Of a stretch of DNA of 64,000 nt, positions 5,492-57,412 are shown in pieces (position 1 is the stretch's first letter; each line of letters begins with the position of its first letter). This DNA is from an uncultured Candidatus Saccharibacteria bacterium (GTDB taxonomy: Bacteria; Patescibacteriota; Minisyncoccia; Phycocordibacterales; UBA6899). The stretch lies in NCBI GenBank assembly GCA_964515375.1, contig CAZERF010000001.1:45777-109776 (forward strand), in the 5' to 3' direction. The notes beneath the pieces were generated by a model that was not told the DNA's origin, ran no database searches, and saw only the letters and a program-made list of their open reading frames with translations. The translations under genes were made by a program, and so were the position numbers.

Positions 5492-7306
5492 ATGACCGAA
5501 CCTATGGACGCACGACATATTCGAAATTTCAGCATTATCGCGCATATCGATCACGGCAAGTCAACGCTGGCCGACCGCATGCTTGAACTCACGCAAACGA
5601 TTGAGAAGCGCAAAATGCACGAGCAAGTGCTCGATTCGATGGAGCTCGAGCGGGAGCGTGGGATTACGATCAAGATGCAGCCCGTCCGCATGTCACATCG
5701 TCACAATGGCGAGGAATATCTTATCAACCTCATCGACACACCGGGGCACATTGATTTTTCGTATGAAGTTTCGCGCGCGCTTCAGGCCGTCGAGGGAACC
5801 CTTCTTTTGGTTGACGCGACACAGGGTGTCCAGGCGCAGACGCTTACTACACTCCAAATGGCTCGCGATCACGGACTTACGATCATTCCCGTCCTCTCAA
5901 AGATCGATTCTCCGCTGGCGCGCACCGAAGAAGTACGCGATGAGGTGGTGCTTCTTCTCGGGGTCAGACCGGAGGAAGTGCTTTTGGTGTCCGGTCGGAC
6001 AGGTGTCGGTGTTCCCGAACTCCTTACCGCGATCATTGAGCGTATTCCGCCTCCCGAGGCGGAGTACGAAGGGCGACCGGGAGCTCGAGCGCTCATTTTT
6101 GATTTCGCGTATTCAAATCACCGTGGAGTGATCCTTTATGTCCGTGTTTTGGATGGGACAATAAAAAAGGGAGCCGAACTATTTTTTACCGCCGCAAGAG
6201 AGCGATTCTTTGGAATAGAGACCGGGTATTTTTCTCCGGGAGAAGTTGAGAAGCCGGAATTATCCGCGGGAGAGATCGGATATATCGTGACGGGGATCAA
6301 ACGTCCCGGCGTTGCGGGTGTTGGTGATACCGTCACGCTGTTCAAAGATCAACTCCCCGCGCTTCCTGGGTATCAAAAACCTCGCCCTGTCGTTTGGGCA
6401 TCTGTTTTTCCCGAGAGCCAGGACGACCTCGCATTGTTGCGGCAAGCATTAGAACGTCTTCAGTTGTCAGACTCGTCTCTTTCTTTCGATGAAGAGTCTT
6501 CGGGAAATCTTGGCCGCGGATTTCGTTGCGGTTTTCTCGGAATGCTTCATCTTGAGATCATTACCGAGCGTCTCAAGAGAGAATTCGGTCTTGAGTTGAT
6601 CGTTACAACGCCGACCATCACCTACGAAGTGACACAGGCACGGACAAAAAAGACTGAGATTATCTATTCCCCGGCGCTTTTCCCTGATGACGGACTTTTA
6701 AGTGCGGTGCGTGAGCCGTGGATCGAGGGGGCGATCATCACGCCGCCCGAGTATATGGGCTCGATCACGCAGCTACTTTTTGATCATGAGGCTGAGACGG
6801 GCGATACCGATATTTTCGGAGACAATCGCTTTAAGGTTGTTTTTCGCATGCCTCTTCGTGAACTGATGCGTGGTTTCTTTGATAAGTTAAAGAGTGTTTC
6901 CTCGGGATTCGCTTCGCTTTCTTATGAGATCGAAGGGTATCGCGATGCCGATGTTGTACGCCTCGATGTACTTGTCGGAGGGGAAGTGGTTCCGGCCTTC
7001 ACTCGTGTTGTTTCGAAACGGAGAGTCGCCGAGGAAGCGGAGACGGCCGTTGAGAAGCTCTATAAGACACTCCCGAGACAAATGATCGTCATCAAGATCC
7101 AAGGGAAGGCATTGGGAAGGATCATTGCCTCACGCTCTCTTTCGGCACTCAAGAAAGACGTGACCGGATATCTCTATGGTGGAGATATTACGCGCAAGAT
7201 GAAACTTCGCGAGAAGCAGAAAAAGGGTAAGAAAAAGATGCAGGAGATCGGAAAGGTCAACATCCCGCCTGAAGTATATGTGAAGATGATCCGAGCCGAT
7301 GCGTAG
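5492..7306 (+). CDS. lepA: Elongation factor 4 (LepA)
   Basis: IRNFSIIAHIDHGKSTLADRMLE G-domain and DTPGHIDF motifs are present. The length (604 aa) and the C-terminal LepA-specific domain fit. Confidence 0.95.
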   Translation: MTEPMDARHIRNFSIIAHIDHGKSTLADRMLELTQTIEKRKMHEQVLDSMELERERGITIKMQPVRMSHRHNGEEYLINLIDTPGHIDFSYEVSRALQAVEGTLLLVDATQGVQAQTLTTLQMARDHGLTIIPVLSKIDSPLARTEEVRDEVVLLLGVRPEEVLLVSGRTGVGVPELLTAIIERIPPPEAEYEGRPGARALIFDFAYSNHRGVILYVRVLDGTIKKGAELFFTAARERFFGIETGYFSPGEVEKPELSAGEIGYIVTGIKRPGVAGVGDTVTLFKDQLPALPGYQKPRPVVWASVFPESQDDLALLRQALERLQLSDSSLSFDEESSGNLGRGFRCGFLGMLHLEIITERLKREFGLELIVTTPTITYEVTQARTKKTEIIYSPALFPDDGLLSAVREPWIEGAIITPPEYMGSITQLLFDHEAETGDTDIFGDNRFKVVFRMPLRELMRGFFDKLKSVSSGFASLSYEIEGYRDADVVRLDVLVGGEVVPAFTRVVSKRRVAEEAETAVEKLYKTLPRQMIVIKIQGKALGRIIASRSLSALKKDVTGYLYGGDITRKMKLREKQKKGKKKMQEIGKVNIPPEVYVKMIRADA

Positions 7307-9589: not shown

Positions 9590-9611
9590 GCTCTAGGAAA
9601 TGGGTATCATA

Positions 9612-9647
9612 AAAAGGTTCTTGTGCAAACAAGAACCTTTTGTTTTG
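9612..9647 (+). terminator. Rho-independent terminator downstream of the glutaredoxin-like gene
   Basis: Hairpin AAGGTTCTTG-tgcaaa-CAAGAACCTT followed by TTGTTTTG. Confidence 0.6.
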
Positions 9648-9656
9648 TACTACATC

Positions 9657-9729
9657 GGTACGGCGGTGATGGTGGTTCCTTTGAGGAATCGAACCATGAT
9701 GAGATGTGAATGTTATTTTTGCTCCCGTA
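9657..9729 (+). repeat. Direct repeat copy 1 (73 bp), followed by a degenerate tRNA-like sequence up to ~9783
   Basis: It is identical to 9866-9938. The copy ends in GCTCCCGTA, the first 9 nt of the tRNA-Arg gene. The downstream 9730-9783 retains the GCTCC-GTCCTGA anticodon-arm-like and GGGAGCC acceptor-like segments but is otherwise diverged. Confidence 0.8.
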
Positions 9730-9865
9730 TGAAGTGGATAGTGGAGCTCCGTCCTGAGGTGAGGTGCGGCGTTGGGAGCCCATTCTGATGGGAGCCGCAC
9801 CGCAAGACCTTTTGAGATATTTTGTGAACAATGTGATGCAAAATATCCAAAAGGTGTACTGCGCC

Positions 9866-9938
9866 GGTACGGCGGTGATGGTGGTTCCTTTGAGGAATCG
9901 AACCATGATGAGATGTGAATGTTATTTTTGCTCCCGTA
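9866..9938 (+). repeat. Direct repeat copy 2 (73 bp), overlapping the 5' end of tRNA-Arg
   Basis: Exact copy of 9657-9729. Confidence 0.8.
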
Positions 9939-10001
9939 GTTCAATGGATAGAACAGCTCCGTCCTAAGGAGTTGATGGTGGTTCGATTCCTCCCGGGAGC
10001 A
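9930..10001 (+). tRNA. tRNA-Arg (anticodon CCT)
   Basis: Hand-folded. The acceptor stem is GCTCCCG/CGGGAGC. The D arm is GTTC-AATGGATA-GAAC. The anticodon stem is GCTCC/GGAGT with loop GTCCTAA. The T arm GGTGG-TTCGATT-CCTCC has one U-U mismatch. No CCA is encoded. Confidence 0.65.
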
Positions 10002-11515
10002 CAAAACAAGACTTCTGACGAAGTCAACGAGCGCGGCGAAGCCGCGCGAGAAAAAGAAAAAGGAGAAATACGCCGTCGCTCCGCGACGAAATGGCTGGGC
10101 GAGGACACGGAAAAGTGGGCGGCTTTGTCACGAACTGCATGGTTCGTTCCAATTTTTTGGACGAAGTCGGCAATTTCGGAGAAATTGTCAGACGAGGACA
10201 AAAAAGTGGCTTGTTTCGTATCTTTTACCCACTCCCGCAATGGTTCGATCCAAGTATTTCCCCGACGTTCACAATCTTTCTTTTTCTCGTTCAAAGTTGC
10301 GAGAGAGCGCATGGTAGCATCCTTCTTTTTCAGATAAATCTCTTTGGGTATGTCTCCATCCAAGTATGTTGAAACGAGTTTGTCCATGCGCTCCTCGTCC
10401 GCTTTGATTTTTTCGGAAAGATTGCGAACCTCGCTCCCTGAAACGGAAGTAGCTTCTTGCTCCCATGTCTCAACTTGCTCCAACATCCAATCGGTATAGC
10501 GATCAGGGAGCGAGATTGTTTGAAGCCGTACTTGCAACTGCTCTGCGAGGTTTCGCTCTTGCACGTACCCTTGCGAGCAAGTGCCGTGCTTTTTGGTACA
10601 GCGATAGTAGCGATAGATACCACCATTGCCTTTGGCGTGTTGCGCCGTGAACATGCCACCGCACTCCCCACAGCGAAACAAGCCAAGAAACGGAAAGTCA
10701 TGCCTGTTCCTTCGCTTCGGCGCACGCGCCTTGCTCGCAAGAACTTTTTGCACGGCTTCAAACAATGTCGGTGAAATAATTGGTTCAAATGTGCCATCAA
10801 ACCATTCACCATTGTGGCGAACAAAACCGAGATATGCTCGATTGCTCAAAAGGTGCCTGACGGCACATTTGGCAAGTGGCTTTCCTTTCGAACTGGTAAC
10901 GCCTAAATCCGCCAAAAACTGCGACAAACTAACAAGACCATGCGTGCCTTTGGCATATTCCTCAAAAGCGCAAGCAACAATCTTTGAATTAGTCGGATGA
11001 GGTTCGATGTTTCTCGTTTTCTGATTGTTCACATACCCAAACGGCGCTTTGGTGAGCCATTCGCCACGGCGCAGTTTTTGGCGGATGCCTCTTTTCACAT
11101 TCTGTACCAAATTGTCCGAGTAGTATTTAGATTGCCCAAAAGCCACTTGCAACATAAAGAGCCCTTGCGGAGTGGGTTCAAACCAAAAGGTCGGAAAGCG
11201 CAAAGACACAATACGCTCGGTATCCACCGCATAGATGACGCGGCCTCCATCAATACTATTTCTAGCCAGACGGTCGGGGTGCCATGCGAGTATCCCCGAA
11301 GCTTCTCCCGTTTCAATGCACGTCATCATCTCATTAAAAATAGGACGACCGGGTGTCTTTGCGCTTTTCGACTCTTGAAACTCCGACAGAATTTCAAGAT
11401 TTTCTTTACGTGCAAATTCATGTAGTTCAAACAACTGCGCTTCTATACTCATGACTTGTTTATCGTCATCTTCGGTGCTTTTTCGAGCGTAAAGAAAATA
11501 TTTTGGTTTGATCAT
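9941..11515 (-). CDS. Large serine recombinase (resolvase/invertase N-terminal domain + recombinase domain + zinc ribbon)
   Basis: The N-terminus YARKSTEDDDKQ carries the catalytic Ser in the resolvase motif. DRLARN and a recombinase domain follow. The zinc ribbon is CGECGG...YYRC. The C-terminal ~60 codons of the ORF are encoded by IR1-left and end inside the tRNA-Arg gene. The true stop may therefore differ. Confidence 0.85.
   Translation of the reverse strand: MIKPKYFLYARKSTEDDDKQVMSIEAQLFELHEFARKENLEILSEFQESKSAKTPGRPIFNEMMTCIETGEASGILAWHPDRLARNSIDGGRVIYAVDTERIVSLRFPTFWFEPTPQGLFMLQVAFGQSKYYSDNLVQNVKRGIRQKLRRGEWLTKAPFGYVNNQKTRNIEPHPTNSKIVACAFEEYAKGTHGLVSLSQFLADLGVTSSKGKPLAKCAVRHLLSNRAYLGFVRHNGEWFDGTFEPIISPTLFEAVQKVLASKARAPKRRNRHDFPFLGLFRCGECGGMFTAQHAKGNGGIYRYYRCTKKHGTCSQGYVQERNLAEQLQVRLQTISLPDRYTDWMLEQVETWEQEATSVSGSEVRNLSEKIKADEERMDKLVSTYLDGDIPKEIYLKKKDATMRSLATLNEKKKDCERRGNTWIEPLREWVKDTKQATFLSSSDNFSEIADFVQKIGTNHAVRDKAAHFSVSSPSHFVAERRRISPFSFSRAASPRSLTSSEVLFCAPGRNRTTINSLGRSCSIH
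9999..10129 (+). repeat. Inverted repeat IR1, left copy (131 bp); it starts inside the 3' end of tRNA-Arg
   Basis: Its reverse complement is identical to 11567-11697 (checked base by base at both ends). Confidence 0.85.
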
Positions 11516-11566
11516 AATTTTTTCCCATTAAAAAGATTGATAAAAATCATGCGATACGAAACAAGA

Positions 11567-11697
11567 GACAAAGCCGCCCACTTTTCCGTGTCCTCGCCCA
11601 GCCATTTCGTCGCGGAGCGACGGCGTATTTCTCCTTTTTCTTTTTCTCGCGCGGCTTCGCCGCGCTCGTTGACTTCGTCAGAAGTCTTGTTTTGTGC
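11567..11697 (+). repeat. Inverted repeat IR1, right copy
   Basis: Reverse complement of 9999-10129. Confidence 0.85.
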
Positions 11698-11935
11698 AGA
11701 AATACTGACCTTTGCTCGAACCCATTTCGAGAAAGGACAATGATCGTGCCGCGCGGAGCGCGTGGTGATGCGAACGCGAAGCGTACGCATTCGGAAATGT
11801 CTGCGCGCCTCGCTGCCTCGCCAGCTCGGCTCCCAAAACCAAAGAAATATCCTTACAATCATTTTTTCGGTGGAGGGGTGTGGGGAGGAGCCGACAGAAA
11901 AAGGAAAGGATATTTCTTTGGTTTGGGATCGCCGC
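11695..11935 (+). repeat. Inverted repeat IR2, left copy (241 bp), abutting IR1-right
   Basis: Its reverse complement matches 13643-13884 with a single mismatch. Confidence 0.85.
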
Positions 11936-12028
11936 AATGAGTTCTTAAAAATCATTTCCCCACCATTACCCTAGTATATTATACTATAATAGTCGTGTAT
12001 AATGTAATAGTTGGGTATAATTGTGGAT

Positions 12029-12232
12029 ATGAATGAGTCCGCAATGCTCGGCAACAATTTGAAAAGGATTCGCGAAGCGAAAAATATGTCTCAAGGTGAC
12101 ATCATGCGCTCTTTGGGATGTAGTCGTAGTTACATAAGTAATATAGAGAACGGAAAAACTAATCCAACACTTTCAACTATCGCTAAGTTGGCAAAAGCGG
12201 TTGGTGTTCCACTTAATAAGTTATTGCAATAA
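12029..12232 (+). CDS. XRE-family helix-turn-helix transcriptional regulator
   Basis: MNESAMLGNNLKRIREAKNMSQGDIMRSLGCSRSYISNIENGKTNP is a canonical HTH_3 motif. It lies in an AT-rich segment. The TTG at 12011 is an alternative start. Confidence 0.8.
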   Translation: MNESAMLGNNLKRIREAKNMSQGDIMRSLGCSRSYISNIENGKTNPTLSTIAKLAKAVGVPLNKLLQ

Positions 12233-12236
12233 GTTT

Positions 12237-13199
12237 ATGAAATCGAAAGCCATCATTATAATTTTTATACTTTTTGTTCTGTTATTTTTAGGTGGCAGAT
12301 ACATTTACTATGGTTCTGTAACGCGCGATTGTATTTATACTGAAAACAAGTTACCCGTACCTGGAGCACTCGAAGCCGGTACTGTAGTTGTGGCAAAGGA
12401 TGCCTACTTAGCTATCGGCATAGACAAAGAGCATGAATGCTTGGACTCGTTTGGAAAAATAGACAGGGAGATTGTAGGACCAGACACAATCAACAACCTT
12501 ACGATAGGAAGGCAATATTTTACTAACAGAGGACTATCTGTACAGACACTTAAAAAGGGAAATGAGTTCAAAGTTGTTGATATTATCTCCGTCACTAAAC
12601 ACGGTCTGTCAACGATAGATTCTGGGCCAGGGCCTATCTATTATCTTATTTTGCAAAGTAGCGACGGGTTACTTTACCAAATTGCAACAGTATCACTCGG
12701 ACTTAATAAACAAGACTTGTTTCTTGCTTTTGTTGACGGTACCCAGAATTACGATCCATCCGCTCCCCAGCTATTAAGTCCAGACAGTTTTAACGAGACT
12801 TATAGTTATGAAGGAGCAGATTCACTCACGTATACTGGAAAACTAACTCAATTAACAGACGATTATCTTCAAAGTACAGAACCACAGTGGAAAAAGTTAG
12901 CAGACCGACTTGAGCGTGGTGAAAAATTTCTCATCATGGTAGATATTGACTTACGAGATGATGCTTTCAGACCGATTATCCTCTCTGAAAACTCAGAAGC
13001 AAGATACAATCAAGTAGCTCAAATACAAGACGAGTTTCTTAAAAAGATACCAAATAATATTGTCCTGAACGGACTTGAAAAAAACCAATCTTGGCCATAT
13101 ATCTCTATGGAGGCAAATCTAGATTTATTGAATTACTTGGTTGATCATCAGGTAGAGTTAAAAATTAAGTCAATATCTGAACTACAAAAAGTGCAGTAA
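12237..13199 (+). CDS. Hypothetical membrane-anchored protein (AT-rich cargo gene)
   Basis: The ATG is 4 nt after the XRE stop. The N-terminal TM anchor is KAIIIIFILFVLLFLGG, followed by a ~290-aa soluble domain. No family was recognised. GC content is far below the flanks. Confidence 0.55.
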   Translation: MKSKAIIIIFILFVLLFLGGRYIYYGSVTRDCIYTENKLPVPGALEAGTVVVAKDAYLAIGIDKEHECLDSFGKIDREIVGPDTINNLTIGRQYFTNRGLSVQTLKKGNEFKVVDIISVTKHGLSTIDSGPGPIYYLILQSSDGLLYQIATVSLGLNKQDLFLAFVDGTQNYDPSAPQLLSPDSFNETYSYEGADSLTYTGKLTQLTDDYLQSTEPQWKKLADRLERGEKFLIMVDIDLRDDAFRPIILSENSEARYNQVAQIQDEFLKKIPNNIVLNGLEKNQSWPYISMEANLDLLNYLVDHQVELKIKSISELQKVQ

Positions 13200-13642
13200 A
13201 AACGTCCGTCTCGCTATCCCCGCGGCAAGCCGACGGGGCATTACGCGGGCGGAATCGGGCGTTTTTGCTAGTTAAGGAATCCCCTCCGGTGATACTTTGT
13301 TTAATGTCGCATTCATCCTCGAGGCAAGCCCACGAGGCATTCTGCGACGTTCTAGTAAAAGACATTCGAGTGTCACGAAAAAGATTGGTTTGTATAGCAG
13401 GTTTTTGAAATCGTAATACACTCAACCGAAGCCACTAAGCTCACACACGGAAGCACCGCAGCAGCTCGCGCGAGCGGAGCGAGCGAGCTGTGCGGAGGTG
13501 CTGGAGTGTAGTGAGCGAACGTTAGAATCACCACGCAGGTTCGCTACGGGAGAGCGCCTCGCACGCCGCGAGTACGGAGAAAAGCGAAGTGGAAGACTCT
13601 CAAATAAAATGGGAACTGAAACAAAGCTTTTTGGAGGACAAA

Positions 13643-13884
13643 GCGGCGATCCCAAAACAAAGAAATATCCTTTCCTTTTTCTGTCGGCTCCTCCCCACAC
13701 CCCTCCACCGAAAAAATGATTGTAAGGATATTTCTTTGGTTTTGGGAGCCGAGCTGGCGAGGCAGCGAGGCGCGCAGACATTTCCGAATGCGTACGCTTC
13801 GCGTTCGCATCACCACGCGCTCCGCGCGGCACGATCATTGTCCTTTCTCGAAATGGGTTCGAGCAAAGGTCAGTATTTCTGCAC
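13643..13884 (+). repeat. Inverted repeat IR2, right copy
   Basis: Reverse complement of 11695-11935. Confidence 0.85.
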
Positions 13885-13918
13885 TTTTTCTTTCTTTCCC
13901 TCATGCTATAATAAACAG

Positions 13919-14241: not shown

Positions 14242-14317
14242 GTTGCGATATGCCGAGGTAGCTCAGTTGGTAGAGCGCTCGCCTGAAGAGCGATAGGTCA
14301 CCAGTTCGACCCTGGTC
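14242..14317 (+). tRNA. tRNA-Phe (anticodon GAA)
   Basis: Hand-folded. The acceptor stem is GCCGAGG/CCTCGGC. The D arm is GCTC-AGTTGGTA-GAGC. The anticodon loop is CTGAAGA. The T arm is ACCAG-TTCGACC-CTGGT. CCA is encoded. Confidence 0.85.
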
Positions 14318-18492: not shown

Positions 18493-21400
18493 ATGAACTC
18501 CGTATACCCATCTTATAAACGTCCATTCTACCTCATGCTTCGCCCGGTCTTCGTGTGGATCATGACCTTTTCTTTGCTACTCCAAACGAGTGCTGTTCTT
18601 CCGCTTGTCGCGGATGCGAACGTACTTGTGAATGTGTCACATTCGGACGGCACAACATCGACCTACGATCTGAAGGAAACCGAGGACGACATCATTGTTT
18701 CGTACTCCATGGGGGAAACGGATGGATCGGGCGCTCCGACTCTCGATGCGCTCTCCGGCCTGCTTGGCCTTTTGGATTCTTCCCTTACGGAGGTGAAGGC
18801 GGAAACGTCCTGCACGGGGAACGGAACTGCGACGGCAAGTGCGAGCGTGACGGATACAGTCACGATCGAAGGCGAGACGGTTGTTGCGACAGCGAGCGCG
18901 CAATCGACGGTGACCTGTTCTGACGGCGAAACAACCCCCGTCAACACTCCTCCCTCCGTGACGCTTCTTGGCGGAACCCCGATGTCCGTGACGCTTGGTA
19001 CATCCTTTGTCGATCCAGGTGCGAACGCCACCGACGCGGAGGATTGTGTCGGACTCACACAGAGCGCGTGTAATACGGCGTTGTCCTTGACGGCGACGGG
19101 TGTCGTGAACACGAATACTCTTGGAACCTACACGATCACCTACACTGCACGCGATTCGAGTGGAGCATTGGCCGTTCCTGTCACTCGTACGGTTATTGTG
19201 ATCGCTCCGTCAACGACAGAGTGTCGTGCTCCGAGTGATATTATGCTTGCGATCGATCGTTCGGGAAGTATGAATGATGATGGGACAAATCCTGATCAAC
19301 CGATGACCTTTGCGAAGGATGCGGCAAAGAACTTTATTGATAGTCTCTCTGCAACAGATGATCGTGTTGGAGTGGTGTCTTTTAGCACTCTCGCGCGACT
19401 CGATGTGTCTTTGACGAATGATTTCCCTCAAGCAAAATCGGCGCTCACCGGACTCATCGCGGAGGGGTGGACAAATATTGCTGAAGCGCTTCTTTTCTCC
19501 TCGAACGACCTTACTGCGAACGGACGAACCAACGCTCGTCAGATCATTATTTTGCTCTCCGACGGAAGACCGGAACCTGACACGAACGCTGGCACCGTTG
19601 CCGCGATCCAGAACGAAGGGGTATGTCATCTACACGATCGGGCTCGGTTCTGGAATTTCTGCTCCGCTTATGCAGGAGATCGCCACGAGTCCCGCGCACT
19701 ACTTCTTCGCGGCATCCGGTACCGACCTCGACGCCATCTATCAATCCATCTTGAGTGTTGAATGTGCACTTCCGAAAGGTTCCGTTTCGGGCCACAAGTA
19801 TCATGATGTTGACGCAAACGGTTCCTTTGGAGACGGCGACACTGTCGTATCGGGATGGGGGATCACCCTTACTCCGAACTCGAGCACTCTTGGCTCTCCT
19901 CGTACGGTGACCACCGACTCTTCCGGCGCGTATACATTCACTGACGTTCAAGCCGGAGACTATACATTGTGTGAGGCGTCGCGAAGCGGATGGACGCAGG
20001 TGGCACCGACCGCGAATAACGGTTGTTACCTTGTCTCTGTTGTCGACAACGTGGATCTGACCGGAAAGAATTTTTACAACAAAGAGCAGGTGACTCCGCC
20101 CGTCAACACTCCTCCCTCCATCACGCTTCTTGGTGCGAACCCGCTCTCGCTGACTGTTGGTGCATCATTCACCGATCCGGGTGCGAACGCTACCGACGCG
20201 GAGGATTGTGTCGGACTCACACAGAGCGCGTGCAATACGGCGTTGTCCTTGACGGCGACGGGTGTGGTTAATACCGGTTCAATCGGCACTTATACTGTTA
20301 CCTATACCGCTCGTGACTCACAGGGTCTTCAGGCGATTCCGGTGACTCGCACGGTAAATGTGATCGCGCTTCCTCCTCCCGACAACACTCCTCCGGTGAT
20401 CACCGTACTTGGGAACAACCCGCTTTTGGTTCGCATCGGTACTATCTTCACCGACCCGGGTGCGACCGCTGCTGATGCTGAAGATGGCAACATTACCGAC
20501 GATATTGTGAAGACCGGCACCGTGAACACGGCGCAGGTGGGGAACTATACGATCCGCTACAACGTCACTGACTCCGACGGGGCAGCGGCAACGGAGAAGA
20601 CCCGCACGGTCACCGTGTTCTCCGCATGTTCCGACGGTCTCGACAACGATGGCGACGAAACGATCGACTTGAATGATGAAGGATGCACTGATCCGAACGA
20701 CGACAGCGAGAACGAGAAGCCGGTCATTGAACTCATTGGCGAGACTCCCATGTCCGTGACCCTTGGTGCAACCTTTACCGATCCGGGCGCCAACGCGACC
20801 GATACGGAAGATTGTATCGGGCTCACACAGAGTGCGTGCAACACCGCACTTCAATTGACAGCGACGGGTGTTGTGAACACGAATACTCTTGGAACCTACA
20901 CGATCACCTACACGGCACGCGATTCGGAAGGTCTTGAGGCGACTCCGGTCACGCGTACTGTGAACGTGGTCTCCACACCTCCGCCCGCCAATACACGCCC
21001 CGTTATTACGCTCCTTGGCGCGGACCCGCTTTTGGTTCGCATCGGTACAACTTTTGCTGATCCGGGTGCGAACGCCACCGATGCAGAGGATTGTGTCGGA
21101 CTCACACAGAGCGCGTGCAACACCGCACTTCAATTGACAGCGACGGGCACCGTGAACATCGCGCAAGTGGGGAACTATACGATCACCTACACGGCGAAGG
21201 ATTCTCGGGGACTCGAAGCGACTCCGGTCACGCGTACGGTCACCGTGTTCTCCGCATGTTCCGACGGCGTCGACAATGACGGCGATGAAACGATCGACTT
21301 GAATGATGAAGGATGCACTGATCCGAACGATGACAGTGAGAACGAGAAGCCGGTCATCACGTTGCTTGGAAATGTCGCCATGCAACTCATCTTGGGCACG

Positions 21401-23086
21401 ACCTTTACTGATCCGGGTGCGAACGCCACCGACGCGGAGGATTGTGTCGGACTCACACAAGCGGAATGCAACGAGATCCTTGACCTTACCGCAACAGGAA
21501 CGGTCAACACCACGCAGCTTGGCACTTACACTATTACGTACACCGCACGCGATTCGGAAGGCCTTCAGGCTGACCCTAAGACGCGCACCGTGAGTGTGAT
21601 TCAGCAGAGTATTCCGGGATGCACGAGCAACTGTGGTGGAGGTGAGACAAATACTCGCCCGGTGATCACCATGCTCGGCAACAACCCGATCTCTGTTCAA
21701 CAAAACACGACCTTTACCGATCCGGGTGCGACGGCGTGGGACTCGGAAGACGGAGATATCACCAGCAAGATCATTGTCTCGGGTACGGTCGACACTACTC
21801 GCCTCGGTTCCTACAACATCGCGTACAACGTGACGGATTCGAAGGGACTTCCCGCACAAGAGCGCACACGCACGGTCAACGTTGTTCCGTGTACAAGCAA
21901 CTGTGGTGGAGGTGGGGGCGGTGGTAGTGTGACCCTCTCGATTTACAACGAGCGCCTCGCGGTGACCGGCACGACAACTGTTGTTGTGACCTGGAATACC
22001 AACATCCCCGCGGATAGTCGCGTGGTCTACGGACTCAATTCTGTTACTTCGCCCGCGTCTGCCCCGTACTACGGATACCCTCTGACCACGGCCACATCGA
22101 CGACCTATACCACCACACACTCGATGACGATCACCGGAATTCCGTCCATGATCGCGACGTACTATCGACCTGTCTCGACGAACGGCGCACTTGTTGCGGT
22201 GGGGCGTGAGCTTACGCGCGCACCCGAGGTGCCGACCGTGATCGGCGGTTCGTGTGAATACTTGAAGGAATATCTCCGCATCGGGTACAACAACAACCCG
22301 ACCGAGGTCTTGAAGCTCCAGCTTTTCCTCAAGAACTTTGAAGGATTTGCCAACATCTCGACCAGCGGATTCTTTGACGAAGTGACTGATCGCAGTGTCC
22401 GCATCTTTCAGGATCGCTACGCGGCCGACATCTTGACCCCGTGGAACCTTCCCGGCAACACTGGCTATGTCTACTATACGACCAAGAAGAAGATCAACGA
22501 GATCTATTGTCAGCGCGAGTTCCCGCTCACCCCGGCACAGTTGGCCGAGATCGCGGAGTTCCGTGAATTGATCCGTCGCATCGGCGCTCCGGTCTCGGGC
22601 GGTGAAACGGTTACGGTCCCGACCTCAACCGGCGGCACGGCGGTGGTCACTGTTCCCGTCGTTGGTCGCAATGACACACAGTCTTCGACGCAAGGTGCGG
22701 TCGCGGGGGCGGCAACCGTCTCCAATGTTCCCGGTGCGGCAACTTCCACTGCGACAGGGACACAAGCATCGAGTGGTCGCAACGGCATCGCGCTTGCCGA
22801 CCTCCTTGCTACTTCTCCTAGTGTCGGACGGGAACTTCAAAATGGTGAAGCCGCATACGACACCGGGGTGGCCACTTCCGTCTCGGGTGACCCGAGCGCG
22901 CTCTTGAAGCAGAACGCCATTCAGGCGGCGATCGGAGCAATCTCCGACGCGACCCACATCTCGGAAAAGGTTTTGCTCGCAGGACTCCTCTTCCTGATCA
23001 TCCTCATCATCGTTGCGGTCGTGATCGTGTGGAGAATGATCGCACGTCGCAAGCAAAATGAGATGAAACTCCCGAAGCAACTCTAA
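18493..23086 (+). CDS. Giant cell-surface protein (signal peptide, repeated Ig-like DUF5011-type domains, vWA domain, Cys/Asp-rich Ca-binding-like linkers, peptidoglycan-binding domain, C-terminal TM anchor), interrupted by a +1 frameshift near 19615-19625
   Basis: Track ORFs 18493-19761 and 19418-23086 are contiguous parts of one reading frame. The vWA domain starts in the first ORF (MIDAS DRSGSM, LSDG) and continues in the second (GYVIYTIGLG...YFFAASGTDLDAIYQSI). Removing one G from the GGGG run at ~19617-19620 restores AIQNEGYVIYTIGLG. Confidence 0.7.
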
Positions 23087-30689: not shown

Positions 30690-30795
30690 ACATTTTTTGA
30701 ATGGTCATTGTGCGATCTCTTCTCTTCTCGTTGAGATGCGCGCACGGAGCACCGTTCAAACAAAAACCTCGGCATGATGCCGAGGTTTTTTGTAC

Positions 30796-32217
30796 TTACT
30801 GTTCGATGACCTTGAATGATTGCCTTATTCCTCCTCCGGTGAGGATGATCGTGCTACGAGAGAAATTGCTGAGAGTTGCGGTTTTTTCGGTCGTTCCCAA
30901 TGTTGTGGGGGTGAAGGCAATGGTGAATTCCTGCGAACTGCGCGGGGGAAGGTTGTATGTGCAGACGCCAACGCAGGCGAAGGGAGCCGGGATGATCAGT
31001 GTTCCCACGCCGGCATGGGTCACGAAGCTCGGGTTGTTGATACGAAGGGTGAGCTTTTCTGTTTTTCCGACTACAGTGGGAGGGAAGTCGAGTCGTTCAT
31101 TGATCGACAACAGCTGTCCCTCTCCGTTCACGAATCGCTCTGCGTCGCCGCCTCCCGAAAAGTTGACAGTGGCGATGCGTGTTCCGACACTTCCGGTCGG
31201 TGCAAAGCGGATAACAACCTCCTGTTCGTGATCGCGTCCGATGTTTGCATATCCGCACGAGACACACGAGAAGCCCATTCCCGCCTGCACTACCGCGGAT
31301 CCAGAGAGGAGTGTCCCTTCTGGTCCGACATTTTTGACTCGAAAGACTCCTTCAAGTGTGTCGCCAAGCTCGACTCCATAGAAAAAGAGTGTCGGGTTGG
31401 GGGAGACCGCAATGATGGGGGTCGGTGCGGAAGGAGTGCCGGACGGGGGAGTCACTCCGGTTCCGTTCCCGGGCACGGTCACATTTCCTCCCCCGGAGAA
31501 TCCTATGTCTGTTGTTTTCGACCCTTCGGTTGTGGGAGTGAAGGAAATCGTGACCGGATGTTCGGTTCCGGGGGTGATGTTGTTGTACGTGCATCCGGTG
31601 ACGCAGGTGAAGGAGGGGTCTCCCGCGAGTGTGACGCTTCCAGTGAGCTCTGATGATGCTCCGCCGGTGTTGGTGACCGTAACGGTAAGGGTCTTTGTTT
31701 CATTGACGGTCACTTCGTTGTAGTGAAGTGGGGAAGGCGAAACAGTGATGACAGGGATGGTTGCGGGGTCAGGGTTGGTGACCGATCCAACTACGCCGTC
31801 GATAACGTTTCCGAGGAGGTCGGTTACGTCATCAATGAACGAACCGGTGTCTCCCGAGATGCTCACGCTGACTGTGGCGAAGTAGGTGATCCCCCAGTCG
31901 CCGACACAGGTGAACTGCCATTCGTAGACCGCCGGGCCTGCCCATCCGGAAAGTTCTCCCGAGTCATAGGAGGTTCCCGAGGGAAGCGGTTGGTCTTTCC
32001 ACTCCCATGTCGTTCCGTTGTTCAAACGTGACCATGTGCAGGAGTTCACCCCGTCTGAGGTCATGGTGACGCGAAACTTATCCAATGAGTCAATGGAGTT
32101 GGACGAAGCCGTTGCGCTGATCGACCCCGCAAGGGCGGCAAAGGGGAGCGACGCTCCAAAAATAAGAGTAATAAAAAAAGTTGAGATGTGGGATGAAATT
32201 CTCTTCATGAGAGCCAT
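30796..32217 (-). CDS. Secreted protein with three repeated ASH/choice-of-anchor-D-like beta-sandwich domains
   Basis: A signal peptide is followed by three ~100-aa repeats with the pattern V.V.P..L.F..V..G.T......V.N.G...L.GS....G..F.C..C...I.....E..V.I.F.PT..G. Confidence 0.65.
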   Translation of the reverse strand: MALMKRISSHISTFFITLIFGASLPFAALAGSISATASSNSIDSLDKFRVTMTSDGVNSCTWSRLNNGTTWEWKDQPLPSGTSYDSGELSGWAGPAVYEWQFTCVGDWGITYFATVSVSISGDTGSFIDDVTDLLGNVIDGVVGSVTNPDPATIPVITVSPSPLHYNEVTVNETKTLTVTVTNTGGASSELTGSVTLAGDPSFTCVTGCTYNNITPGTEHPVTISFTPTTEGSKTTDIGFSGGGNVTVPGNGTGVTPPSGTPSAPTPIIAVSPNPTLFFYGVELGDTLEGVFRVKNVGPEGTLLSGSAVVQAGMGFSCVSCGYANIGRDHEQEVVIRFAPTGSVGTRIATVNFSGGGDAERFVNGEGQLLSINERLDFPPTVVGKTEKLTLRINNPSFVTHAGVGTLIIPAPFACVGVCTYNLPPRSSQEFTIAFTPTTLGTTEKTATLSNFSRSTIILTGGGIRQSFKVIEQ

Positions 32218-52592: not shown

Positions 52593-53000
52593 ATGCGTAC
52601 TGTAAATAGGAAATTGATCATATTCTTTCTCTCGTTGGGGTTTGTTTTTGCCCCCTTGGTCTTTGCTGAGGATTCAGGATTAATCCCATGCGGAAATGAT
52701 GTTAAGAATGGTAAGGTAACGGATCCTTGTGGTTACGACGATCTTGTCACACTAGCAAAGAACGTCATTGATTTCCTCATTTTCAAGATCGCTGCACCGC
52801 TCGGGGCTGTTATGTTTGCGTACGCCGGGTTCTTGTATCTCACAAATGGAGGAAACGAATCAAAAATCAAGGAAGCGCACACAATATTCCTCTATGTCTT
52901 TTGGGGGCTTGTTGTCGCACTGGCCGCATGGCTCATTGTGAATTTTGTGTTGACGTTCTTCCTTGGAGAAAGTTCTACCTTTAACTTCCTTGGTGTATGA
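52593..53000 (+). CDS. Small secreted two-helix membrane protein, VirB2/TrbC-pilin-like paralog 1
   Basis: A signal peptide is followed by ~35 aa, TM helix 1 (IAAPLGAVMFAYAGFLYL), the loop TNGGNESKIKEA, and TM helix 2 (IFLYVFWGLVVALAAWLIVNFV). This core motif is shared with the next seven genes. Confidence 0.7.
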   Translation: MRTVNRKLIIFFLSLGFVFAPLVFAEDSGLIPCGNDVKNGKVTDPCGYDDLVTLAKNVIDFLIFKIAAPLGAVMFAYAGFLYLTNGGNESKIKEAHTIFLYVFWGLVVALAAWLIVNFVLTFFLGESSTFNFLGV

Positions 53001-53350
53001 ACCTCTTTTCTCGCCCGGTATTTCGAACTGTCGTGAGTGTGGGTACTTTTTCTTTCCTCTTTGCTCCGCTTGCTCATGCCGGCTCATATACGAATCCGAT
53101 CAAGTATGGTGACATTGAGACTGTTCCTGAATTCCTCTTCGCCTTGGTCGATCTTGTCTTCTTGATCGCAGTACCGCTTATTGTGATTTGTATCATTTAT
53201 TCCGGCTTTCTTTTTGTGACCGCGGGAGACAATGAGTCTCAGATAGGAAAGGCTCGTACGGTCTTTCTTTGGACCCTTATTGGTGCGGCTGTCCTCCTTG
53301 GCGCAAAAGCGATCGCAATGGCGATCCAAAACACGATCGACTCTCTATGA
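52997..53350 (+). CDS. VirB2/TrbC-pilin-like paralog 2
   Basis: It has the same architecture. The loop is TAGDNESQIGKA and TM helix 2 is VFLWTLIGAAVLLGA. There is an ATGA overlap with the neighbouring gene. Confidence 0.7.
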   Translation: MNLFSRPVFRTVVSVGTFSFLFAPLAHAGSYTNPIKYGDIETVPEFLFALVDLVFLIAVPLIVICIIYSGFLFVTAGDNESQIGKARTVFLWTLIGAAVLLGAKAIAMAIQNTIDSL

Positions 53351-53676
53351 AGTGGTACACCCATACAGCACTTGCGCTCTCCCTCTTCCCGCATCTTGCA
53401 TATGCGACGAAGCTTGGACCACCGACAGCTTCACTTGGTGGAACACTTCAGGATTTCATCTACCTGCTGATCAACATCATACAAGCGGTCGGCATCCCGA
53501 TTTTGGTTATCTGCATCATCTATTCGGGGTATTTGCTTGTTTCAGCCGGTGGGAATGAACAGCAGGTAACCAAGGCAAAGTCGTGGATAATCTGGACGCT
53601 TGTAGGTGCCGCGATCATCCTTGGAGCGGAGGTGATCGCAAATCTCATCTTTACTACCGCCGAAGAATTTGAATGA
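53348..53676 (+). CDS. VirB2/TrbC-pilin-like paralog 3
   Basis: The start is ATG 53348 (MKWYTHTALAL). The loop is SAGGNEQQVTKA and TM helix 2 is WIIWTLVGAAIILGA. Confidence 0.7.
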
Positions 53677-53679
53677 TCC

Positions 53680-54027
53680 ATGAATAAAACAAAAAACATC
53701 ATTTACGCAGTGGCAGCACTCTTTCCTTTTGTTGCTCTCGCCACTTCACCATCAACATTTCGAGAGCTCGCTGAGCTTATCGTTGGACTAGTGAAGGGTT
53801 TCGTCGCGATCCTCTTTGCTTCGTTCTCTGTGGCAATGGTGTATGGTGTTGTTGTGTATCTCATGAACGCCGACAATGAGCAAAAGCGTTCGCAGATCAA
53901 GGGGTATTTGTTGTGGGGGATTATCGGTATTACCGTTGCGTTTGGCCTTTGGGGTATCTTGCAGATCATGTGTAACACGCTTGGTTGGGGTCTCTGCGGC
54001 ATTCCGATCATTGAACCCCCCGAATGA
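53680..54027 (+). CDS. VirB2/TrbC-pilin-like paralog 4
   Basis: The loop is MNADNEQKRSQIKG and TM helix 2 is LLWGIIGITVAFGLWGIL. Confidence 0.7.
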   Translation: MNKTKNIIYAVAALFPFVALATSPSTFRELAELIVGLVKGFVAILFASFSVAMVYGVVVYLMNADNEQKRSQIKGYLLWGIIGITVAFGLWGILQIMCNTLGWGLCGIPIIEPPE

Positions 54028-54046
54028 TTACTCACTGTACCACTTC

Positions 54047-54415
54047 ATGATATTTATGAAATCTTTTTTCTTGCTATTATCTCTTTTTGTGCCTTCGTTT
54101 GCCTCTGCCGGAGTGACGGACGTCGAAGATATCTTTTCTTTTCAGGAGCTTCTCTTTCGTCTTCTTATCGCCCTCAATTACTTTCTCTGGGTACTAGCGA
54201 TCGTTGTGTTCATGTGGGGGGTGGTACGTTTTATTGCAAATGCGGACGATGCCGAAGAGAGGGAGAAGGGGAGACACCTTATCATTTGGGGTATCATTTC
54301 TTTTGTTGTATTGCTTTCCTTGTGGGCATTCGTTTCGTTTATCCTTGTGGACACCTTCGGCATTTTTTCGGTTGAAGTTCCTTATGTGAACAAAGACGGA
54401 TTTGTTGTTGAATGA
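54047..54415 (+). CDS. VirB2/TrbC-pilin-like paralog 5
   Basis: The loop is ANADDAEEREKGRH and TM helix 2 is LIIWGIISFVVLLSLWAFV. Confidence 0.65.
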   Translation: MIFMKSFFLLLSLFVPSFASAGVTDVEDIFSFQELLFRLLIALNYFLWVLAIVVFMWGVVRFIANADDAEEREKGRHLIIWGIISFVVLLSLWAFVSFILVDTFGIFSVEVPYVNKDGFVVE

Positions 54416-54522
54416 CCTCAGCTCACTCTCGGCTCACAACACTTTTTCGGGCTTCTTGTGCTGCACCAGCTTTATCTCCGAGCTTTTAAGCTTACCTCAA
54501 ATGAAGGTGCACATGTTTTACG

Positions 54523-54655
54523 TCATCGTTCGGTCGAAGAGCGCATGCGGACATGGCTCTTCTTCCTCACTCGACGTAGTAACCCGTTGTCCACGTCGTC
54601 GTTCGGTCGAAGAGCGCATGCGGACATGGCTCTTCTTCCTCACTCGACGTAGTAA
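54523..54655 (+). repeat. Two tandem ~60-bp repeats, each forming a GAAGAGC...GCTCTTC hairpin
   Basis: TCGTTCGGTCGAAGAGCGCATGCGGACATGGCTCTTCTTCCTCACTCGACGTAGTAA occurs twice, about 72 bp apart, in the paralog 5/6 intergenic region. Confidence 0.7.
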
Positions 54656-54769
54656 TCCACACCCACCCCTTGCGGTGCATTGCTACTTGTTATCTTTAGG
54701 AGTATCATTAGGGAGTAGTTTGGTAAGTGTTCGTTTTAATATTATTAATTATCCAATTTACTTCGGTAT

Positions 54770-55129
54770 ATGAAGAAATTTATTGCAATAGCAATGCTCT
54801 TGGGTCCGACAGCGGCCTTTGCTACCCCGCTTGAGTCGACCTATACGCTTGTTAGTAACTTCCTTAACGCACTGATCCCACTCCTGATCACCCTCGCGGT
54901 CGTTGTCTTCTTCTGGGGTTTGGTCAAGTACATCATGAGCGCCTCTGACGAGGCAGCAAAGGAAGGCGGAAAGAATCTCATGATCTGGGGCATGATCGCC
55001 CTCTTCGTGATGGTGGCGTTCTGGGGTATCATCGGATACTTCCAGCAGTCGCTCGGTCTCTCCGGTTCGATCACGAGCACTGCACCTCCGATGATCGAGC
55101 TCCCGACCTCTGAAGACTTCCAATTCTAA
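54770..55129 (+). CDS. VirB2/TrbC-pilin-like paralog 6
   Basis: The loop is SASDEAAKEGGKN and TM helix 2 is LMIWGMIALFVMVAFWGIIGYF. Confidence 0.7.
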   Translation: MKKFIAIAMLLGPTAAFATPLESTYTLVSNFLNALIPLLITLAVVVFFWGLVKYIMSASDEAAKEGGKNLMIWGMIALFVMVAFWGIIGYFQQSLGLSGSITSTAPPMIELPTSEDFQF

Positions 55130-55211
55130 GGGAACGTTTTGCGGTCTGAAAAACCCCGCCTCCTGCGGGGTTTTTCTTGCTTGCATGTACGAAAGAGGAT
55201 ATAATTCTTTC

Positions 55212-55529
55212 ATGTTACAATTATTTTTCTCCATCGCACATGCCTCTGACACAGAGATACCCTCTAGTGTGAAAGAATTTATCGGTAAGATAAGCACCGA
55301 GATATTGAACCCGATCATTGCGGTCTTGTTTGTCTTGGCAACGTTGTATTTCTTTTATGGTGTTGCGAAGTATCTTTGGGATCCCGAGAATGAGGAGGCG
55401 CGCGAGGGTGGTAGGCGAAGTATGCTTTGGGGTATCGTTGGAATGTTCATTATGGTTTCTGTCTTTAGTATCATGCGATTCCTCATTAGTTCGATCGGCG
55501 CAGATGAGGCATTGATGGACTACGTTTAA
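55212..55529 (+). CDS. VirB2/TrbC-pilin-like paralog 7
   Basis: The loop is WDPENEEAREGGRRS and TM helix 2 is MLWGIVGMFIMVSVF. The ATG at 55185 is an alternative start. Confidence 0.6.
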   Translation: MLQLFFSIAHASDTEIPSSVKEFIGKISTEILNPIIAVLFVLATLYFFYGVAKYLWDPENEEAREGGRRSMLWGIVGMFIMVSVFSIMRFLISSIGADEALMDYV

Positions 55530-55549
55530 TTCTTTTTATTTCAACGCTT

Positions 55550-55849
55550 ATGGACATGGTCGAAGTATTTCAATATCTCATAAAGATGGTTGCGATGCTG
55601 ATCCCGATATTGGTGGGATTTGCGATTGTCGCTTTCTTTTGGGGTATCGTTAAATTCATTGCACACGCTGATGATGAGCGTGCGATTGCGGAAGGGAAGC
55701 TCTTCATCGTCTGGGGGTTGGTCGGACTTTTTGTTCTTGTTTCTTTTTGGGCTCTTGTCGGTTACATTCAAGAAACGATCGGGGTTGAGGAGGCACTTTC
55801 GCTCGGAAATCTCTCACAGCAAAAAACAGAGATTCCCGTCCCTGATTAG
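55550..55849 (+). CDS. VirB2/TrbC-pilin-like paralog 8 (core-only form)
   Basis: TM helix 1 is MVAMLIPILVGFAIVAFFWGIVKFI, the loop is AHADDERAIAEGK and TM helix 2 is LFIVWGLVGLFVLVSFWALVGY. It lacks the N-terminal pre-domain. Confidence 0.65.
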   Translation: MDMVEVFQYLIKMVAMLIPILVGFAIVAFFWGIVKFIAHADDERAIAEGKLFIVWGLVGLFVLVSFWALVGYIQETIGVEEALSLGNLSQQKTEIPVPD

Positions 55850-55918: not shown

Positions 55919-57412
55919 TTAGTTGACGATGACCTTGTACATGGCGTACAGCTCTTGATCCTTGAATAGCTGGATCCAGCGTACGCCATTTTGGTCGGTA
56001 AGGAGATTGGCGGGACCACGCACTCCGGGGTCGTGCTCGAAGAATCCGGGCCGAACCTCTTTTTGGGCATAGTGCTGCCTCCATGTGGTGCCGCAGCCGC
56101 GCATCCCATCGGGAAACTCGGTGTCGCAGGGGTAGGGGATCTCGATGATGAAATCCTTGTATTCTGCATCCGGGTCCCTGGCGATGATGATCGTCGGTTT
56201 GGTGCCGTCACCTCGGGCGATCCCAAGGAAGGGAATTGGGCGTTTGCCTTGTGCCGATCCTTGCATGATTTCAAACCCAAGACCGAGCGTTCCGGTCTCG
56301 CTCACCTCCTTTGCGGTAAGGTGTCCCCATTCGTCCCGAGTGATGAAACTCGATCTGAACTGGGAGACGTTGCCACGTGTCGCGTTTTGTTGCGGTTGCT
56401 CAACGGAGCTCATTCCCGTCATTGCAACCTCGGTGTTGGTGCCGAGGAAATACCACGCACCATAACCGATCGCGATGACGAGGAGGACACGCCCCAGGAT
56501 CTTGTGCTTGATGGCGTACCACAGCACGAGCAGAGCAAAGAGCACCGCACCCGCCCAGATGAATGTCTCTTTTTCAACCCCATCGAGACTCTCGGCACCT
56601 TTCTTTGCAACTTCACCGATCTGAGTCGGCGGAAGTTTGGGTACTCCTTTCCGCACCTCCTCTTCAAGTTTGATCATGGTCTCGAGTTCTTCGCTCGAGA
56701 GCACTTGACCCTTCTCAACTTTCTCCTTGAGACTCTCAAGCGCATCCGCTTTTTGGGTATCAAGGTTTCGCCAAGATTGTTCCCGGATCACTTGTGCTTG
56801 CGTCGCAGTTTCCGACATCTTGAACCAGACCGGATTGATTCCGACACTGGTCCACAGGGTGTGTGGGATTGCAGCGACCACGATCGCGATCAGTAGTGCG
56901 ATACACACGCCGAGCACAGGTTTGTGCCACGGACCACTCGCCATCTTGTTTGTTGCGACCGCATAGATCACGGTCGGAATGATCACAAGCATGACCGCGA
57001 CGGCTGATCCCGCTTGCGCCCATGTGTTCGCCAGGGCGGGGAAGTGGAAGTAAACCGCCATGTAGAACTCTGCCCAGATGAGCACGAGGAATACGATCTT
57101 GGCGACCGCTGCTAGTACTTTTCCGGCATACTTGCCGAAGTCTCCTTCAGCAGGAACGCCGTAGACGGCTCCAGCGATCGCCAGTACTGCTTGATGCTTC
57201 AGCTGGAACCATACCACAAGCCAGAGAATAAAGAATCCGACCTGTGTCACTAAAATGAGCCCTGTGAGCTCGAAATGTGCCATGATCGGCACGCCAACGA
57301 GGATGATGAGGAATGCAGTGAAGAATCCCTCAGTGATCCGGATCCACGCGCGGTCCGCTTCGTGTGCGGTCCATGTGGCAAGTCCGGGGATAAGTCTAAC
57401 GAGTGCTTCCAT
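55919..57412 (-). CDS. Large polytopic membrane protein (VirB6/TrbL-like topology?), hypothetical
   Basis: The 497-aa ORF has ~5 N-terminal TM helices, a central coiled-coil-like hydrophilic segment, 2 further TM helices and a ~150-aa soluble C-terminal domain. No motif was recognised. Confidence 0.55.
   Translation of the reverse strand: MEALVRLIPGLATWTAHEADRAWIRITEGFFTAFLIILVGVPIMAHFELTGLILVTQVGFFILWLVVWFQLKHQAVLAIAGAVYGVPAEGDFGKYAGKVLAAVAKIVFLVLIWAEFYMAVYFHFPALANTWAQAGSAVAVMLVIIPTVIYAVATNKMASGPWHKPVLGVCIALLIAIVVAAIPHTLWTSVGINPVWFKMSETATQAQVIREQSWRNLDTQKADALESLKEKVEKGQVLSSEELETMIKLEEEVRKGVPKLPPTQIGEVAKKGAESLDGVEKETFIWAGAVLFALLVLWYAIKHKILGRVLLVIAIGYGAWYFLGTNTEVAMTGMSSVEQPQQNATRGNVSQFRSSFITRDEWGHLTAKEVSETGTLGLGFEIMQGSAQGKRPIPFLGIARGDGTKPTIIIARDPDAEYKDFIIEIPYPCDTEFPDGMRGCGTTWRQHYAQKEVRPGFFEHDPGVRGPANLLTDQNGVRWIQLFKDQELYAMYKVIVN

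Follow-up and report, generated by a model that had tools for sequence, protein, structure and literature searches.

A 17-nt deletion beside a G4 run, probably genuine and recent, splits the gene of a giant vWA/Ig-repeat surface protein in a Lloydbacteria-like bacterium

In the window, i.e. the whole 64-kb stretch of DNA that was analysed, a gene for a giant vWA/Ig-repeat protein is split between two reading frames inside its vWA domain. Most probably, a conserved adhesin gene of a Lloydbacteria-like bacterium has lost its function here through a 17-bp deletion that is genuine, recent, and irreversible. What has the appearance of a homopolymer slip would thus be a deletion abutting a G4 run, which becomes visible only by comparison with close relatives.

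Under this explanation the window would represent a null allele of a cell-surface adhesin gene of ~1535 codons. A single 17-bp deletion between 2-nt CG microhomologies would have removed the A-N-S-A-K-A codons immediately ahead of the vWA strand YTIGLG, and the loss of 17 bp would have moved the reading into the +1 frame. As the sequence stands, translation from the native start ends after 374 correct and 48 nonsense residues, and the other 1156 codons are intact but have no export signal; a functional adhesin would presumably not be made. The allele may be a pseudogene of recent origin or a loss-of-function variant for which the population is polymorphic; in both cases it would be irreversible and would not act as a switch. 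Spontaneous +1 slippage on GGG-G, at a low rate, might nevertheless produce the full-length protein in trace amounts. A 17-bp deletion is, in itself, an ordinary kind of event.

The window is part of a bacterial chromosome, as seen from its genes for RNase P RNA, 11 tRNAs, LeuRS, TsaD, and FtsA. Its LeuRS is 68–73% identical to those of Candidatus Lloydbacteria and other Parcubacteria metagenome-assembled genomes (MAGs). The split gene lies between tsaD and the divergently oriented leuS, and a gene of the same Pfam architecture occupies the same locus in related Lloydbacteria-like genomes.

The features of the gene are listed in Table 1. The first open reading frame, ORF1, encodes 422 residues, whose last 48 lie beyond the frame change; in its frame, positions 19606-19630 of the window read ATC CAG AAC GAA GGG GTA TGT CAT. 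An open +1 frame extends between 19418 and 23086, and from 19616 it reads KGYVIYTIGLGSGISAPLMQEIATSPAHYFFAASGTDLDAIYQSI..., which is a textbook continuation of the vWA domain. When one base is removed, a single protein of 1530 aa results. Its Pfam VWA match scores 81.6 bits and covers profile positions 1-172 of 174, vs 56.3 bits and positions 1-119 for ORF1 alone, as the preliminary description of this DNA had anticipated in proposing that the domain resumes downstream after the removal of one base. Membership in the vWA family was taken to mean a full-length PF00092 match above the gathering score together with the metal-site residues DxSxS...T...D. The repaired reading alone has both, with the motifs DRSGS, GWTNI, and LLSDG; as encoded, the domain is truncated. 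The MIDAS motif is found where it had previously been placed, at ~19255.

Two further observations concern the junction. The residues G-x-x-YTIGLG at this place are invariant in homologues, and the alignment with a metagenomic homologue of 428 aa and 37% identity (P0001) runs straight across it. ORF1 and the long frame ending at 23086 are the two halves of one gene of ~1530 codons, far beyond what chance would produce. In an annotation, both ORFs are best joined and marked as a single disrupted gene.

Table 1. Features of the split gene in the window (all on the + strand).
Feature	Position	Strand	Remarks
ORF1, truncated N-terminal product	18493..19761	+	422 aa, TGA stop
N-terminal hydrophobic signal or anchor	18532-18618	+	within ORF1
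PF16403 Ig-like module, single N-terminal copy	18961-19200	+	within ORF1
vWA domain PF00092, interrupted by the frame change	19237..19741	+	Pfam
MIDAS motif DRSGS	19255-19269	+	within the vWA domain
Deletion junction	19613..19615	+	17 nt (CGCAAATAGCGCCAAGG or equivalent placement, A-N-S-A-K-A) missing vs L039 and L040
48-codon out-of-frame tail of ORF1	19615-19758	+	after the first two-thirds of the vWA domain
Downstream part, +1 frame, KGYVIYTIGLG... to stop	19616..23086	+	1156 codons
GGGG run	19618..19621	+	within GAAGGGG 19615-21; AAG GGG in frame in intact L039
SdrD_B-like domain (SdrD_B / Cna-B-like)	19799-20014	+	downstream part
C-terminal TM helix, followed by a short basic tail	22970-23032	+	downstream part

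In the repaired protein, a Ser/Thr-rich stretch separates the N-terminal signal or anchor from the first PF16403 module. Besides the features in Table 1, the downstream part holds the C-terminal third of the vWA domain and six more PF16403 modules with Cys/Asp-rich linkers between them. On its C-terminal side are a conserved domain with a weak PG_binding_1-like match and then a Ser/Thr/Gly-rich low-complexity stalk. The full-length protein would be of ~160 kDa. The peptide that spans the frame change would be ...AIQNEGYVIYTIGLG..., and the trans-frame peptide would be AIQNEGYVIYTIGLGSGISAPLMQEIATSPAHYFFAASGTDLDAIYQSILSVECALPK.

The closest solved relatives of the vWA domain, all of low identity (best E = 2e-16), are mussel PTMP1, BatB, CMG2, and a Gram-positive pilus adhesin. 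Together with the eukaryotic vWA proteins PTMP1 and CMG2, the Gram-positive MIDAS vWA adhesins (pilus tip adhesins, e.g. PDB 3txa, and proteins with SdrD-type B domains) resemble the window protein in having a DxSxS vWA domain followed by an SdrD_B / Cna-B-like domain, as well as Ig-like repeats and a membrane or cell-wall anchor. In contrast, the window protein has a C-terminal TM helix instead of an LPXTG sorting signal, and seven PF16403 modules with Cys/Asp-rich linkers. From these domains, it is plausible that the repaired protein is a metal-dependent adhesin of the cell surface.

The linkers, CSDGxDNDGDETIDLNDEGCTDPNDDSENEKP, are conserved and recur between the Ig-like modules, at 20700-21700 in the window and in three orthologues (L005, L039, and L041); they have no Pfam assignment and resemble calcium-binding motifs. 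At the DNA level, exact repeats of 31-53 nt are common to the Ig-like modules (19018-19145 and 20192-21459), and these could also support gain or loss of modules through recombination.

The nature of the lesion is seen from two metagenome contigs that were found by a metagenome scan using an alignment of the orthologue proteins and that are far closer to the window than any other orthologue. JACCDV011208646.1 (L039) has one intact ORF of 1535 aa and is 93% identical to the window at the amino acid and 85.5% at the nucleotide level; JACCDV010755295.1 (L040), 91% identical in amino acids, is in frame over residues 1-790, to the contig end. At the site L039 reads CAG AAC GCA AAT AGC GCC AAG GCG AAG GGG TAT ATC (Q N A N S A K A K G Y I), and L040 is the same except for GGT as the Gly codon (AAG GGT). 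The window has CAGAAC-G-AAGGGGTATGTC, with the flanking AAGGGGTAT identical to L039. In the MAFFT alignment of the window DNA with L039 and L040 there is exactly one 17-nt gap in the window, directly 5' of CGAAGGGGT. The junction sequence in the window is CAGAACGAAGGGG, the placement of the gap being ambiguous over the 2-nt CG microhomology, and the version with the 17 nt restored is CAGAAC GCAAATAGCGCCAAGGCG AAGGGG-like.

On this comparison the GGGG run dates from before the lesion, as the intact L039 has the same AAG GGG in frame; it is ancestral, and the mutation lies elsewhere. The tract is not conserved either, since L040 carries GGT at this codon. The deletion is derived in the lineage of the window, because at this place the segment of the more distant orthologues is of equal or greater length. 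The preliminary description had placed a +1 frameshift in the G4 run itself, within GAAGGGG at ~19614-19620. That a single large vWA protein is split by a +1 shift is borne out, and so is the presence of the run, which begins one base later than described; the lesion, however, lies beside the run and not in it.

The repair proposed earlier, the removal of one G, is arithmetically equivalent to the restoration of the 17 nt (17 = 18 - 1), but, judging from the relatives, it is historically wrong. The ancestral protein would read AIQN-ANSAKA-KGYVIY, which has six more residues than the repair gives, and the peptide AIQNEGYVIY derived from it is to be replaced accordingly. A two-step history, in which an in-frame deletion of 18 nt was followed by an insertion of 1 nt in the G run, is less likely, though it may have taken place, and was rejected as the primary model: no contiguous 18-nt deletion of L039- or L040-like sequence gives the required intermediate. 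Since no such deletion plus a G insertion yields the sequence of the window, the one-event model is clearly more parsimonious.

Intact genes are found in other lineages at the same locus. The tsaD-gene-leuS loci of Lloydbacteria RIFCSPHIGHO2_02_FULL_50_18 (L005, identical to L042 and L043; 1542 aa), of the metagenome contig Ga0209515_10002018 (L041; 1640 aa), and of L039 contain uninterrupted ORFs in the range of 1535-1640 aa. A partial gene in Lloydbacteria GFS_13726 (L007) is intact through the vWA domain to the contig end. The comparison with orthologues, which had been proposed as a check, thus both established an intact gene at the same locus and exposed the 17-nt gap beside the G4 run. 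With a single 17-nt gap, a VWA profile cut at 119/174, a +1 frame kept to the natural stop, and intact relatives, a genuine pseudogene is the best supported of the three origins that had been offered for the split.

With a derived out-of-frame lesion in a conserved domain, intact orthologues, no compensating change, an otherwise pristine gene, and a small deletion flanked by microhomology, the case most closely resembles the ordinary frameshift pseudogenes, or null alleles, of large bacterial surface proteins. Nothing material differs, and only the host and the uncharacterised adhesin family are unusual.

The age of the lesion may be judged from the constraint on the two halves of the gene, as measured by dN/dS (Nei-Gojobori, on codon alignments). 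Between the window and L039, dN/dS is 0.045 in the 374 codons upstream of the lesion and 0.049 in the 1154 codons downstream, with a range of 0.035-0.06 among four downstream sub-blocks of 200-356 codons each, at a dS of ~0.7. For the intact pair L039 and L040, the values are 0.06-0.07 in the segments before and after codon 380, which together comprise 796 codons. No relaxed constraint was detected, and there is no second frameshift or stop in the 3.4 kb. Therefore, either the deletion arose very recently by comparison with the split from L039, or it is absent from the real organism. These values also document, at a fixed tsaD–leuS locus of Lloydbacteria-like Patescibacteria, a conserved giant vWA/Ig-repeat surface protein under strong constraint (dN/dS ~0.05).

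The second of these two possibilities is that the gene is intact in the organism and that the gap arose in assembly or polishing, or from a rare variant path chosen by the assembler. This explanation is unlikely, but it is the most serious of the alternatives, and the perfectly intact and strongly constrained 3.4 kb downstream are what an artefact would likewise leave. On the other hand, a 17-nt deletion with only 2 nt of microhomology is no homopolymer miscall and is atypical of the errors of any platform; it is also atypical of de Bruijn misassembly, since the junction has no repeated k-mer. Moreover, no other broken gene was noticed in the 64 kb, where reading frames were scanned by codon usage and overlapping ORF pairs on the same strand were checked with Pfam, with no other frameshift found. 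Homopolymer runs are frequent in the window: 237 are five bases long, 59 six, 13 seven, and 2 eight. As no other broken gene was seen despite these hundreds of runs of at least five bases, the assembly does not appear to be systematically prone to indels.

Public short-read data bear on the same question. In the runs SRR35539484 and DRR784957 there are contigs that match the window at 100% identity as far as 19047 (on the leuS side), and SRR35539484 has a further contig, also 100% identical, from 21430 onward (on the tsaD side). The three Logan contigs concerned (L001, L002, and L003) match the window over 3.3-4.7 kb, and all of them end at exact repeats between the Ig-like modules, short of the frame change. 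Contigs of complete identity in two unrelated public runs indicate that the same strain has been sampled repeatedly.

A simulation of unitigs at k=31 predicted a contig of 19116-20221 for the vWA region. The prediction for the 3' fragment, which served as the positive control of the boundary prediction, was confirmed by recovery of that fragment. In contrast, the ORF1 fragment of the deletion allele was not on record in the gene index for SRR35539484 and DRR784957 at any of four guessed left boundaries (19117, 19105, 19075, and 19042). This absence is weak evidence for an artefact, as the actual contig boundaries or gene calls may differ from the guesses. The populations behind the two runs may carry the intact allele or be polymorphic, in which case the allele of the window would be a minority variant or an artefact.

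Other searches concerned the wider record. Exact look-ups of the products of ORF1 (422 aa) and ORF2 (1222 aa) found neither on record. A search of genome_contigs and metagenome_contigs with a DNA pattern around the site, in which GGG or GGGG was allowed, gave no match; the 17 nt and the SNPs of the relatives preclude their matching it. The protein search with the vWA-SdrD segment returned only distant homologues (≤ 43% identity), and the 93%-identical protein of L039 was absent from the matches. Since L039 was missed and the partial Logan products are outside the collection searched, the protein search is uninformative on close relatives.

A genuine deletion, the preferred reading, might still be decoded or tolerated, either by programmed or efficient +1 ribosomal frameshifting on GGG-G or by termination and reinitiation at the TTG at 19751. 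This is very improbable. GGG G is formally slippery for a +1 shift, in which tRNA-Gly(CCC) can re-pair without mismatch, and a gene for tRNA-Gly(ccc) was found; the downstream frame is wholly uninterrupted, and a second lineage also has its adhesin gene split in the vWA domain (see below). However, the intact frame is equally explained by recency, and the lesion of the second lineage is a distinct deletion elsewhere in the domain. L039, L040, L041, L005, and L007 are all in a single frame across the site, so that the shift is common to no orthologue. The site also has no 0-frame stop or obvious stimulator, the next 0-frame codon being GTA (Val). Programmed frameshifting of the prfB/RF2 type was taken to involve a two-frame organisation conserved among orthologues, a slippery P-site codon, a stop or slow codon in the A site, and a stimulator upstream. 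It shares with the present case the need for a +1 shift and a P-site GGG followed by G that permits re-pairing; it differs in that the shift here is unconserved in orthologues and has no in-frame stop and apparently no conserved stimulator at the shift site. With regard to reinitiation, the downstream part has no signal peptide and no start preceded by a Shine-Dalgarno sequence, its nearest in-frame starts being ATG 19670 and TTG 19751. Without a signal peptide, separate expression could not place the downstream part on the surface.

Hardly credible at all is the insertion of one G by slippage in the G4 run, whether as a homopolymer error of sequencing or as reversible slipped-strand phase variation, both of which the preliminary description had offered. 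It is true that the frame becomes open, and the VWA match complete, once a G is taken out, and that phase variation typically acts on genes such as those of large surface adhesins (PMC1891110). However, AAG GGG TAT is identical and in frame in the intact L039, the difference being the 17-nt gap beside the run, and a G insertion would require an additional, non-contiguous in-frame deletion. These facts speak against a homopolymer consensus error. The same facts, and the length of the tract, speak against phase variation. A contingency locus was expected to have a hypermutable tract, either a homopolymer of at least some 7-9 nt or short tandem repeats in several copies; the site has only GGGG, of the same length as in the intact L039, and TRF found no tandem or simple repeat there. 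Four-base runs are commonplace in the window (181 of G4 and 107 of C4, with longer runs reaching T8, G7, and C7) and fall far below the lengths of known phase-variable tracts. In Bordetella, for example, homopolymers are called phase-variable from a length of ~9 C/G upward, and none shorter than the C6 in bvgS is known in that genus (PMC1891110). The known homopolymer contingency loci (Bordetella fim, bapC, and tcfA; the poly-G tracts of Neisseria and Campylobacter) are alike in that a large surface adhesin-like gene changes frame beside a G run. They differ in that the tract here is of 4 nt and unchanged vs an intact relative, and in that a 17-nt deletion is irreversible and cannot be reverted by slippage.

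The split in the second lineage belongs to Parcubacteria GW2011_GWA2_47_7 (contig LCOM01000023; L006, also L044), where the orthologue is independently disrupted in the vWA domain at 6400-6760. The lesion is an out-of-frame deletion of ~112 nt nearer to the MIDAS motif; the gene is thereby split into ORFs of 356 aa and 1126 aa, and is otherwise intact. The vWA domain is therefore disrupted in 2 of the 7 independent orthologues that cover it. Two breaks in the same domain may reflect chance, the picking up of variants by MAG consensus sequences, or recurrent loss.

The stronger proposition, that natural Lloydbacteria-like populations repeatedly generate null alleles of the giant vWA adhesin and keep them at appreciable frequency, is improbable at present. 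If it were true, the nulls could reflect recurrent selection for the loss of a function in host attachment or as a phage receptor, with irreversible 'off' variants being maintained through population heterogeneity in an episymbiont. As a plausible, putative host-attachment factor that appears inactivated in two lineages, the adhesin gene offers a modest lead for population-level studies.

Three other regions of the window deserve mention. At 52593-55849 (+) there is a tandem array of at least eight small paralogous membrane proteins (99-135 aa) with matches to PF18895 T4SS_pilin / TrbC-VirB2, adjoined on the opposite strand by a multi-TM protein of 497 aa (55919-57412). The multi-frame appearance of this stretch (52.6-55.9 kb) was considered as a possible frameshifted gene, which was rejected in favour of an array of separate small pilin genes.

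The stretch at ~9600-13900 has a low GC content (0.43-0.48) and a low coding score. Within it, a large serine recombinase gene (9941-11515, -) abuts tRNA-Arg(cct) (9930-10002), and the low-GC stretch ends near tRNA-Phe at 14252; it is probably an integrated mobile element. Finally, a protein of 473 aa encoded at 30796-32217 (-) has Ig-like domains of the ASH / Cep192 / HYDIN type, and its gene overlaps an unsupported plus-strand ORF at 30701-31231.
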